Shown here: positions 12,001-15,000 of the stretch, piece by piece
Position numbering within the stretch: position 1 is the stretch's first letter
Layout: each line of letters opens with the position of its first letter
Assembly (NCBI RefSeq): GCF_030013205.1
Contig: NZ_CP122648.1
Source: Escherichia coli
Lineage (GTDB): Bacteria; Pseudomonadota; Gammaproteobacteria; Enterobacterales; Enterobacteriaceae
Length of the DNA stretch: 64,000 nucleotides
Direction: 5' to 3' (one strand)
Made by a program: the position numbers

Positions 12001-15000
12001 AAATTCATGATGCAGTAAGAAAAGATACTGTGAGATTTAATTCTCCATCTAATGGAGTAACGGCTGTTTCAGGGTTTAAAGTGATTTCGGTTGTCCCTGT
12101 TCCATGAATGGTTATAGAAGGGGCTGGAAGCCCCTAATTATTACTTCTTAATATCGCCAGTGCATTGATATTCGATAGTCACAAGTGTTTGCATACAACC
12201 AGATGAAGAAGGTTGTGAACATTGAGAAGTGAATCCACCAAAAGGCTCGGCTCCTGAATATCCCCAAGCGGCACAACGCGCTTTGGCTGCATTCATGCCT
12301 TGTTGTGGATCTACAACAGGACTTTCAAACATACCGTAAGAATAACTCATCCTAACTGTGCCGTCTGATTTGCTTCCACCAGTTGGAACGAGTTGTTTTT
12401 TTGTTGCACATCCAGAAATAATCAATGTTGAAGCAAGTAACAGCATTAAACTTTTGCGCATGTAAATAATCCCAAGAGATAATGGTTATGTATTGATTTA
12501 AAGCGTTTTTAGATTAATGCATTAACTTAGCAAAATTAAGTCTTTTCTGATTGTTTGCAGAGTAAAAATGAGTTGCTTTCGAAATTATTTCGGATGTTTA
12601 TTGTATTACGGTTTTTCAAACCGTCTAACTATTGTCGCTATTGAATGGGCAATAATAGCAAGAGGATTCATTTCGTCATTGGAGGCAACAAAAAGTCGGT
12701 AACTGATAGCTACAACGAATGAAACAATAACGAGAAAGCGGATAGTGCTAAGATGTTTTGAAGATAAATGCATAACGCCCCCTAAATGAATGTGAGGGGG
12801 ATTAAATCATGCAAATTTGTTGTGTGCAATACTGGTAATTTATCCTAATAGTCTACTATTCACCTCAATCTACGTCAACCAATATTTGATGTAGATTTGA
12901 TTTTCTTTTAAAAACAATATGTTGCAATTTGTTGGGTTTTGGGGTTAGGTTGTTTTTTGGACGTTTCCATCAAGTGTAAAGATACGTTTAGCCTTCATAG
13001 TGAGTTCAGTTACTGTCTTTTTCTCTGAAATCGGCGCATACGTGATCATCGCTTAACGAGAAGATCAGCGCCGTCAGGTCCATGCAGCGACAATTCTGAA
13101 ATATCAGGAGGCATTACGCTTCCTGCTCTTTCTTGATACGTTGCACCGTCTGTGTGCTGACACTGAAATCTTTTGCTACGCTCCGAATTGATCCACCATT
13201 CGCGAGAGCGGCAACAATTCCCGCTCGATCAATTGCTTTTCCATTACCACGTTTTGCTATACGCCCAGCTGCCTTAGCTGCGGCGATCCCTTCACGTTGA
13301 CGCTCAAGCATCATTTCACGTTCCATTTGTGCCACTGCTGCAAGCACTGTGAGCATCATATTCCCTGCGGGAGAGTTCTTCCCTGTCTTAAAGTCTTCTT
13401 TATGGAAATGCACAGACACGCCGCGCTCTGTTAATTGCTCAACCGTTGCCAGAAGGTCGGCTGTATTACGGCAAAGGCGATCAATACTGTGAACATGCAA
13501 AACATCACCTTCCCGCACATAGTTCATCATTGCCTCAAACTGTGGGCGCTGGGTATTCTTGCCTGACGCTTTATCTTCAAAGACTTTATCAAGAGCTACT
13601 CCAGCTAATTGACGGTCTGTGTTTTGTTGCACAGTCGATACCCTAATGTATCCAATATTAGCCATTTTCTTTATTCCTTCTGTGTTGATTTGTGTGTAGT
13701 GATTATTGATCGTGTTGATTAGGTGTGTAAAGGACTTTTTTCACTACGAAATTCGAAGGTTTTTAGTGTGGTGATTTAGCCTGCTTTATCACTACACGTC
13801 TTGCATGAGAATCATGTAGTTACGTTTTGGTAAAATTAGCAAGCTATTAAATAGTGTGTTTATTTTGAAAAAATAATTTTTTGTTGCATTAAAGAAAACT
13901 TGTTCGACAAATAATAGATTGATTTTTAATCAATAATTTCTGATAGTGCTCTGTAAGCCGCATTACACAAGGCTTTGCGAAAGTGATGTAAAAGTGAAGA
14001 AAGTAAGAATTGCACTTTTAAGCTACTTTTCATTGAATTTTTAGTATGGAATTACACAGGGATTAATCATCAATTACATTGAATTTAAGCCTGTTTTAGA
14101 TGTTTAATTTTGGTAGCAAGAAACACTTTTAGAAGATCATTGCACAGATGTTATGTGATAAATGGATGTAACGATGGGTTACATTCAGCTATCTGAAATA
14201 CTCTCTGTAAGAAATTTGGTAGTAACGATTCGTTACATAGACTAATTATTGAATGTAACGATATTACACATCGGTAGTAACGATACGTTACATCGGCAGA
14301 TGATTGGTTGTAACGAAAGGTTACACAATAAGACTAACATCTATAATACTAATAATAAAACTAACTATTAAACTATATAATATAATTCTTTTTTATCTTT
14401 ATAAGAATAATTATAGGGATACCCGTTAGGGAGTCTAACGACTATCCCTTAATCTATTGGCATTCGCCAGAACCTTGCACAAGTTAGAGTGTTAGTCGTT
14501 AGACTGCTTGTCATAACACATAGTTTTTGTTTGTTGATGTTAGTTAGTAGATCTATGTTCGCTTTCCGCTCACAACGAATATGTAATCTACTATGTGCAA
14601 ATAGCCTACGGCTTGCGTAAGGCTAAATAGTCTTGCGCTGTGCGCAGAACGATAATTAACTAACTACCATCTAACGATCATCAATCATCTAAAATAAATT
14701 TCTTGTGCAATGTTCTTGCGAATGCAATTAGGGTAGCGTTACCCCTTTGGGGATGCTAACGCATAACTATAGATCAACCATCAAACAGACAAAAAAGAAA
14801 AATATGGTTTAAAGATGTTAGGTAGTAGATGAGTTTCTACCGCTTAAATCAAGCCGTAGGCGAGCTAAACGTATATAAGGTAGGGAAACACTTAGCGGTA
14901 ATAGATTAGCTCGTTATAGAGATTCTGAGGAGCTTTACAGGTATTTTATAAGGTGTCTGAAATTAGATTTTATCTACCATCACCTTTTCATATACCTAAC

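Follow-up and report, generated by a model that had tools for sequence, protein, structure and literature searches.

This study concerns a 64,000-nucleotide stretch of Escherichia coli DNA (NCBI RefSeq assembly GCF_030013205.1, contig NZ_CP122648.1; chromosome of strain ETEC4079), referred to below as the window, and within it an integrated element that carries an array of palindromic boxes beside an AT-rich tract. Two tandem islands lie downstream of the tRNA-Gly gene glyU: a P4-like satellite and then the box-bearing element, which is 14.7 kb long (11404-26149; approximately 13.4 kb without an IS3 insertion). The left attachment (att) repeat, TTCCCTTCGCCCGCTCCA (11386-11403), is the 3' end of glyU and also forms the right end of the P4-like satellite; the right att repeat, GATTCCCTTCGCCCGCTCCA, lies at 26130-26149. 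From left to right, the element comprises a YecR lipoprotein gene, a gene for a small serine recombinase of the resolvase/invertase type (13114-13665, minus strand; 183 aa; Pfam Resolvase, 5.7e-39), a non-coding region, a rightward operon of small genes, the genes for a 342-aa major capsid protein homologue (19408-20436, plus strand), a 607-aa tape-measure-like protein (20823-22646, plus strand) and a 225-aa Dit-like tail or baseplate protein (24051-24728, plus strand), and, at the distal end, a tyrosine integrase gene (24822-26042, minus strand). The operon includes genes for a 55-aa protein that is ribbon-helix-helix-like by eye (15562-15729, plus strand) and for a 226-aa protein that we propose to be a replication initiator (15783-16463, plus strand). 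The non-coding region, which a first-pass annotation had described as 1.65 kb free of open reading frames (ORFs), was confirmed as a 1,692-bp interval (13666-15357). ORFs inside it reach 40 to 43 aa at most, and the stretches holding them are swapped out with the box cassette or broken by indels in relatives.

The boxes comprise iteron 1, which is the distal box (TGTAACGATGGGTTACA, 14167-14183), iteron 2 (AGTAACGATTCGTTACA, 14221-14237), iteron 3 (TGTAACGATATTACACA, 14254-14270), iteron 4 (AGTAACGATACGTTACA, 14276-14292), and iteron 5 (TGTAACGAAAGGTTACA, 14309-14325). The first-pass annotation had listed five palindromes; all five boxes are present, but only four (14167, 14221, 14276, and 14309) are perfect (T/A)GTAACGAnnnGTTACA palindromes. 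Iteron 3 is degenerate: its left arm is intact, its right arm is shifted out of register by one base, and this form is retained in related arrays of the same type (type A, see below). In the 64-kb window, the pattern GTAACGANNNGTTAC with at most one mismatch was found only at the four good boxes, giving six strand-matches against 0.22 expected, a number reached by none of 100 shuffles. The type A arms GTAACG/GTTAC are invariant between loci, while the center between the inverted arms consists of 3 to 4 variable bases and is not poly-A. The center-to-center spacings are 54, 33, 22, and 33 bp, so that, as had been noted, the boxes are set near multiples of 11 bp: three spacings are exact multiples and one is a multiple minus one. 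A period of 11.0 bp accommodates the cumulative offsets within 0.1 turn, and a period of 10.5 bp fits worse.

The almost pure A/T stretch of about 75 bp reported after the boxes corresponds to an 89-bp tract (14326-14414; 13.5% GC) with a 74-bp core (14341-14414; 10.8% GC). Nearest-neighbor free energies placed the least stable 60-mer of the entire window within it, at 14343-14403 (-55.9 kcal/mol compared with an element mean of -78.9 and a standard deviation of 6.2, i.e., 3.7 standard deviations away). The tract is accompanied by a conserved inverted repeat, AGGGATA..(21 nt)..TATCCCT (14415-14449); the two are duplicated together in one related locus, L009. With five repeated sites where at least three are usual, an adjacent AT-rich candidate DNA-unwinding element, and a putative cognate initiator on the same element, whose N-terminal domain is of the type of the adjoining cassette in all 20 loci scored below, the region has the general layout of an iteron origin. 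A promoter-like match, GTTACA-16-TATAAT, also was found at 14320-14347, and its -35 hexamer is the right arm GTTACA of iteron 5.

We aligned 20-odd related loci, which came from E. coli genomes, assemblies, and IMG/VR contigs. Sequence to the left of the cassette (..AGAAGATCATTGCACAGATG..) was conserved, and the repeats between this flank and the AT tract were replaced wholesale. The boxes proved to be one of at least five interchangeable cassettes, designated A, B, C, D, and X, plus E. Cassette A has five copies of TGTAACGAnnnGTTACA; cassette B, two or three copies of AGGTCACTGTGAGCT with a 22-bp period; cassette C, five copies of TAACAGAAnnCTGTTA; cassette D, four copies of GGAAATGAGTTCC; cassette X, two or three copies of TATCAAnnnTGATA; and cassette E, two copies of a direct repeat. 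All types except E show dyad symmetry, and their spacings (22 to 25, 33 to 35, 44, or 54 bp) are multiples of about 11 to 12 bp. An AT tract adjoins every cassette, although its sequence is not uniform: types A, B, D, and E have one common AT tract followed by the hairpin AGGGATACCCGTTAGGG..TATCCCT, type C has a different AT tract with the same hairpin, and type X and loci L005 and L010 have another AT tract and no hairpin.

The type of the AT-proximal cassette equaled the type of the N-terminal domain of the 15783-16463 protein in 20 of the 20 loci that contain its gene. In two mosaic loci with several cassettes, L009 and L010, the cassette nearest the final AT tract was the matching one. This gene, the third ORF of the rightward operon, was the only one to covary; the C-terminal domain of the same protein, the neighboring 60-, 55-, 89-, and 127-aa proteins, and the recombinase did not. 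The 55-aa protein is common to A and B loci and the 60-, 89-, and 127-aa proteins are common more widely, and these four were rejected as box binders since shared or identical alleles occur in loci of different cassette types. Among the three binders put forward in the first-pass annotation, then, the product of 15783-16463 covaries with the boxes and those of 15562-15729 and 16473-16742 do not. The boxes are kept among relatives wherever the cognate N-terminal domain is present and are replaced by other repeats where that domain differs, a pattern that supports function. Type X provided a further case. It was first encountered as the first domain of a phage protein (see below) and thereby predicted as a fifth type; E. 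coli chromosomal proteins 98 to 100% identical to this domain were then found, and upstream of their genes lie new palindromic TATCAA..TGATA boxes that abut an AT tract.

The covariation also bears on whether the neighboring serine recombinase might use the boxes as recombination sites or as accessory res-like sites. Its gene is located 500 bp to their left, and resolvase sites are inverted repeats in arrays. However, loci of types A, B, C, and D encode recombinases that are at least 98.9% identical, and L009 has a different recombinase at that position. The enzyme was rejected as a box binder, and we give this explanation practically no weight.

The 226-aa protein is predicted to comprise a variable N-terminal winged-helix domain, an acidic disordered linker, and a C-terminal domain ending in ..IYDSIPF. 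Types A, B, C, D, and X are defined by the N-terminal 90 to 130 residues, in which they are 20 to 35% identical to each other (the window protein being type A), whereas the acidic linker and C-terminal domain are common across these types, in two variants. A modular N-terminal domain that covaries with the origin, joined to a conserved C-terminal domain, is the arrangement of RepA_N and PLE RepA-like initiators. Pfam analysis returned only HTH_36, just below the cutoff; there was no match to Phage_rep_O, nor to RepA_N (PF06970) at E values up to 0.1. When N-terminal domain types A to D were scanned against PHROGs, nearly all matches were to replication initiation families, O-like or DnaD-like, with E values from 5e-8 to 1e-2; the few others were generic DNA-binding or unannotated families, and no repressor family was among them. 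A sequence search against solved structures gave generic winged-helix matches only. The AlphaFold model (mean predicted local distance difference test [pLDDT] score of 70; N-terminal domain, 64 to 92) suggests a beta-hairpin extension and winged helix, a disordered acidic linker (residues 132 to 165), and a small helical C-terminal domain. When the model was compared with the PDB using Foldseek, eight of the ten best matches were chains of RepA_N initiators (E of about 1e-3), consistent with a DnaD-like winged-helix fold resembling the RepA_N N-terminal domains. The fold evidence is coherent, although not strong on its own. Taking covariation and fold together, we infer that the N-terminal winged-helix domain of this protein reads the boxes.

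Nearly all full-length variants of the protein end in ..IYDSIPF, ..YEDFDIPF, or ..EQSTIPF after the acidic linker (P0129 differs), and ends of the ..IPF type extend to relatives in Enterobacter, Klebsiella, and Cronobacter (alignment A1; P0130, P0163, and P0196). The C-terminal tip of E. coli SSB is ..DFDDDIPF. The ..DFDIPF/..DSIPF tail may mimic this tip and recruit SSB-binding replication proteins of the host. No SSB or other protein with an ..IPF tail was found in phage inny, which is described below.

A winged-helix protein that covaries with its sites could also be a regulator, either a master repressor or an autoregulator, in which case the boxes would form an operator array controlling a promoter such as the promoter-like match that overlaps iteron 5. 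However, on inspection of the sequences this match is not maintained across the other types of cassette, a highly unstable AT tract adjoins the cassette in all 20 scored loci, and the strong promoter of the operon lies 880 bp downstream of the last box. The absence of repressor families from the PHROG matches, nearly all of which are to replication initiation families, and the RepA_N initiators among the best structural matches also speak against it, and we regard an operator array as unlikely. A packaging function was considered as well: the boxes could be a pac-like site read by a small-terminase-like protein whose C-terminal domain docks the large terminase of a helper. Small terminases often have an N-terminal winged helix and bind repeated sites, and a satellite needs a packaging signal, of which none was identified here. 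Nevertheless, the N-terminal domain types have no terminase matches in PHROGs or Pfam, the predicted fold is closest to that of RepA_N initiators, and a terminase-binding site would leave the adjacent unwinding-prone tract unaccounted for. We consider a packaging site very improbable.

Taken together, the covariation with a RepA_N-like N-terminal domain, the least stable duplex of the window, and a layout like that of PLE RepA and its origin make it probable that an integrated phage satellite has its vegetative replication origin here, with the boxes as iterons and the AT tract as unwinding element. The first-pass annotation had proposed an origin, a partition site, or an operator array, and we agree with its view that such an element would replicate after excision: the island is flanked by att repeats and is best read as a phage satellite. 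This reading of the element rests on its att sites and integrase, its structural homologues, an initiator without enzymatic domains, and the lack of any recognizable helicase or primase gene. In the mechanism that we envisage, dimers of the N-terminal domain would bind the palindromic boxes, as covariation and fold imply. By analogy with iteron origins, the 11-bp phasing would put these dimers on one face of the helix, so that the array could bend or wrap the DNA and open the AT tract. The linker and C-terminal domain would then recruit replication proteins, which must come from the host or helper because the element encodes no recognizable helicase, primase, or polymerase.

On the centromere alternative, the element would be maintained as a plasmid and the boxes would serve in its partition. 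Arrays of phased repeats characterize parC, parS, and tubC sites, and a copy of the region with 93% identity is present on one E. coli plasmid of 166 kb. The distribution of the region, however, is overwhelmingly chromosomal. Sequence related to 13600-15800 was found in 743 of 5,426 complete E. coli genomes, 128 of which match over at least 80% of its length, and 871 of the 872 matches are in chromosomes; several inspected copies sit at thrW rather than glyU. The element is bounded by att repeats and has an integrase gene. It contains no ParA, ParM, or TubZ gene, and no centromere-binding gene lies beside the boxes, so the operon that links a partition NTPase with a centromere-binding protein in plasmids is missing from it. 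A partition role therefore appears highly improbable.

When the initiator was used as a tblastn query against 50,697 phage records, a single match was obtained, to inny, a 147-kb lytic Justusliebigvirus. Its gp184 (367 aa) consists of a type A domain (87 to 90% identical), a type D domain (89% identical), and a C-terminal nuclease domain. Chimeras of the same design are encoded by phages muut (gp154; X, D, and nuclease), Mt1B1_P17 (C, 100% identical over 104 aa, then D and nuclease), and BI-EHEC (C, D, and nuclease). All four phages are lytic Stephanstirmvirinae; the chimera occupies one and the same locus in them, and it is the first domain that has been exchanged. There are two domains of satellite type per protein, with 83 to 100% amino acid identity to those of the satellites. 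The copied segments are 93 to 99% identical at the nucleotide level, the type X segment being 85% identical; identities of up to 99% were found between L005 and inny over 625 bp and between L007 or L013 and Mt1B1_P17 over approximately 355 bp. Identity at this level indicates recent DNA exchange between satellites and phages.

The nuclease domain of the chimeras matches the endonuclease family phrog_681 (3.9e-18) and reaches Pfam MUG113 with 22.3 bits, which equals the cutoff; the match to T5orf172 (E = 0.025) is below the cutoff. The chimeras thus combine an N-terminal part homologous to the DNA-binding domain of the satellite initiator with a nuclease domain of the T5orf172/GIY-YIG kind, as does Odn of the Vibrio phage ICP1. 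By analogy with Odn, which cuts the origin of the PLE satellite, they probably cut satellite origins, and nuclease pressure of this sort would explain why the iteron cassette and the N-terminal domain are swapped jointly. No A, B, or D boxes were found in the inny genome. Phages inny and muut also carry the satellite 55-aa gene, with identical protein sequence, directly upstream of the nuclease gene (L022, 3781-3963 [inny_185]; L023, 709-876 [muut_153]), and the phage may use this protein to interfere with satellite gene control.

Comparison with inny revealed homologues of the structural genes of the element. The capsid homologue is 23% identical to the major head protein, gp96, over its full length (E = 1.7e-9), the 607-aa protein is 31% identical to gp105 (E = 1e-20), and the 225-aa protein is 49% identical to gp106 (E = 1.7e-56), which adjoins gp105. 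The element appears to be a satellite of lytic Stephanstirmvirinae of the phi92/phAPEC8-like kind. These phages are its likely helpers, since it encodes diverged counterparts of their major head protein, of gp105, and of gp106 and shares 93 to 99% identical DNA segments with them.

Several points weigh against an origin. The support for it is all computational. Many of the 20 loci are near identical, and the independent evidence for covariation amounts to about five cognate pairs and the two mosaics. No Pfam replication family matched the initiator at threshold (RepA_N and Phage_rep_O gave nothing and HTH_36 was subthreshold), the PHROG E values are modest, the Foldseek E value is about 1e-3, and the mean pLDDT of the model is 70. 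The proposed origin is 1.4 kb from the initiator gene, neither inside nor beside it. A regulatory role for the boxes is possible because iteron 5 overlaps the promoter-like match. Finally, the phage chimeras show that the domains recognize something specific to the satellites, not that the target is the origin.

Further inspection of the non-coding region revealed additional features. A strong sigma-70-like promoter for the rightward operon, TTGACA-17-AATAAT with a TG element, is conserved in the alignment (15207-15235, plus strand). It is followed, before the first ORF, by a conserved hairpin with a T-run that resembles a terminator or attenuator (15293-15331, plus strand); the hairpin was read from the sequence and alignment and was not listed by an automated scan. 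It begins approximately 60 nt after the promoter, its variants GAGCCGTCAGGCTGC and GAAGCCCAAGGCTTGC both keep the pairing, and it could be an attenuator controlling satellite induction. DnaA boxes, which lie near the iterons of plasmid origins that depend on host DnaA, were not found in 13666-15357, either as TTATCCACA with up to one mismatch or as TTWTNCACA. A single match to the IHF consensus occurs at 13912. A repeated (A/T)TTACACAGG motif is present on the left side of the iterons, at 13961, 14051, and 14073 of the window and at 2930-3010 of L005; in some relatives, copies come within one mismatch of the relaxed consensus for DnaA boxes, and no window copy is that close.

The segment from 14416 to 15200 has a mosaic structure, in that relatives differ in which blocks they contain; the blocks are bounded by the short repeats GGCGAGCTAAAC, TGCGCTGTGCGC, CTTGTGCAAT, and ATCTAACGAT. 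The motif TGTGCAAT/ATTGCACA recurs at 14136, 14473, and 14704 and in the -10 region at 15225, and CTAACG/CGTTAG also is frequent. Long inverted repeats occur in this segment (for example, 14454-14483 with 14702-14731, 30 nt and 87% complementary). A structured RNA was considered here and rejected: one arm is invariant and the other diverges in relatives without compensation, and whole blocks come and go, so no RNA is claimed. No Rfam family was found in the window at gathering thresholds, and 13600-15800 gave only chance-level matches.

In some relatives, rows of remnant cassettes (A, B, C, X, and D) lie upstream of the active one (L010, 3040-3500; L029, 4170-4370; L009, 3050-3290), and L009 has two complete copies of the module of repeat, AT tract, and hairpin. 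The remnants look like a fossil record of origin swaps.

Elsewhere in the element, an IS3 family insertion (22631-23961) truncates the 3' end of the gene for the 607-aa gp105 homologue. Strain K_EC180 has no IS3 insertion and a 614-aa gp105 homologue, and its initiator gene is frameshifted, whereas that of the window is intact. A second ORF-free gap of about 1 kb (17816-18807) separates the early small genes from the capsid module and contains the second least stable duplex of the element (18191-18251). The neighboring P4-like satellite (1-11385), a separate island at the same tRNA-Gly site, encodes an integrase, AntA/AntB, an Icd-like product, a primase, ProQ/FinO, and a PerC family regulator. 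We looked for a link between the element and the O157 Sakai prophages Sp1 and Sp2 at thrW and rejected it, Sp1 being a lambda-like remnant and Sp2 being P4-like. Membership in the PICI, cfPICI, or P4 families was likewise rejected, since the hallmark genes sought (alpA and pri-rep; a full capsid module that includes portal, protease, and terS; or alpha, sid, psu, and delta of P4) were not found among the genes of the element.

A scan of genome contigs with the initiator returned only two near-identical loci. One contig, L004 (JAEWTL010000083.1), is labeled "MAG: Bacillota bacterium" yet is approximately 99% identical to the element, which probably reflects a binning error. N-terminal domains that resemble type X (63 to 75% identical) occur in Klebsiella, Enterobacter, Cronobacter, Citrobacter, Leclercia, and Kluyvera (P0141-P0214), and the three initiators of this group that were read through all end in ..IPF. 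The occurrence of such initiators in these genera suggests that the satellite family may extend across the Enterobacteriaceae.

The observations can be joined into a broader picture, which we favor by a narrow margin over its being wrong. It holds that the element belongs to a satellite family of which we found no description, one that is common in E. coli and is served by lytic phi92/phAPEC8-like coliphages, with type X-related initiators in further members of the Enterobacteriaceae. Phage nucleases bearing two stolen domains would attack the origin and initiator of such satellites, which would drive the swapping of iteron cassettes and let leftover cassettes accumulate beside the origin, and an arms race of the ICP1-PLE type would be a general phenomenon and not a Vibrio peculiarity. 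Our literature search found nothing that links Stephanstirmvirinae to an E. coli satellite, and the term "origin-directed nuclease" was found only for Vibrio systems; in both cases coverage was incomplete, and an earlier description is possible. If the picture is correct, the element is the E. coli counterpart of Vibrio PLE and ICP1 in the most tractable host. The likely helpers have been isolated already: inny and muut grow on K-12 MG1655, and Mt1B1_P17 and BI-EHEC also are in culture. The pairs of origin and initiator would be a natural set of at least five orthogonal DNA recognition modules with known cognate sites, and nucleases with tandem domains hint at the way in which phages broaden their range against satellites. 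In existing annotations the phage genes appear as no more than "hypothetical protein" (one is unannotated), and the initiators of the satellites are called "transcriptional regulator" or "helix-turn-helix domain-containing protein," labels that would be worth revisiting. Moreover, Stephanstirmvirinae that are candidates for phage therapy may be restricted by these islands or may mobilize them.

Several known systems resemble parts of this arrangement. The origin of phage lambda has a run of dyad-symmetric iterons spaced about two helical turns apart, beyond which lie first an AT-rich tract and next an inverted repeat. The same order of iterons, AT tract, and inverted repeat is found here, the proposed initiator likewise would combine an N-terminal specificity domain with a partner-binding C-terminal domain, as O does, and there are weak O-like PHROG matches. 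In contrast to lambda, in which the origin is inside the initiator gene and a P-type loader gene is downstream, the putative origin is outside the initiator gene, 1.4 kb upstream, and no P-like loader was found in the element; the protein has no Pfam Phage_rep_O match, and its predicted fold is closest to RepA_N. The RepA_N plasmid initiators of Firmicutes (pSK41 and pTZ2162; PDB 4PT7, 4PTA, and 5KBJ) differ in turn, since the protein described here has no PF06970 match and is chromosomal, satellite borne, and from Enterobacteriaceae, and since its boxes have a variable center instead of the poly-A tract of the plasmid iterons. The origins of PICI/SaPI and P4 satellites have iterons beside an AT-rich region and specificity pairs of Rep and ori, as proposed here. 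In those satellites, however, the initiator is a primase-helicase fusion whose gene contains or adjoins the origin, unlike the present initiator, which has no enzymatic domain, and the element lacks alpA, pri-rep, P4 alpha, sid, and psu.

The closest parallel is with PLE. In that satellite, RepA_N covaries with the origin and has a conserved C-terminal domain (PMC8263062), and PLE RepA was placed in the RepA_N family by structure and function, having no BLASTP similarity to plasmid RepA_N proteins (PMC7145576). The ICP1 nuclease Odn has an N terminus 42% identical to PLE RepA_N and a T5orf172 C terminus, cuts the PLE origin at the iterons, and thereby selects for swaps of the PLE origin and RepA_N (PMC8263062). 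The E. coli element shares with PLE an N-terminal domain that covaries with semi-palindromic iterons and a shared C-terminal domain, a putative origin in a large non-coding region, the lack of a recognizable helicase or primase gene, and a likely lytic helper that carries a chimeric T5orf172-type nuclease with a copied initiator DNA-binding domain. There is no detectable sequence homology between the two systems (15 to 19% identity in structural alignments), and host and helper family are different. The element integrates at tRNA genes by means of a tyrosine integrase and not a large serine recombinase, and it encodes its own capsid, tape-measure-like, and Dit-like homologues. It has at least five specificity types compared with two in PLE, fossil cassettes lie beside its putative origin, and its function, unlike that of PLE, is deduced from sequence comparison and predicted structure. 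The nucleases differ from Odn in carrying two tandem copied domains and in the 83 to 100% identity of these domains, compared with 42%. The arrangement as proposed is therefore of a known kind, a satellite RepA_N/iteron origin attacked by an origin-directed nuclease, and this instance of it differs in host, helper family, the five or more specificities, the fossil cassettes, the tandem-domain nucleases, and the absence of sequence likeness to PLE.

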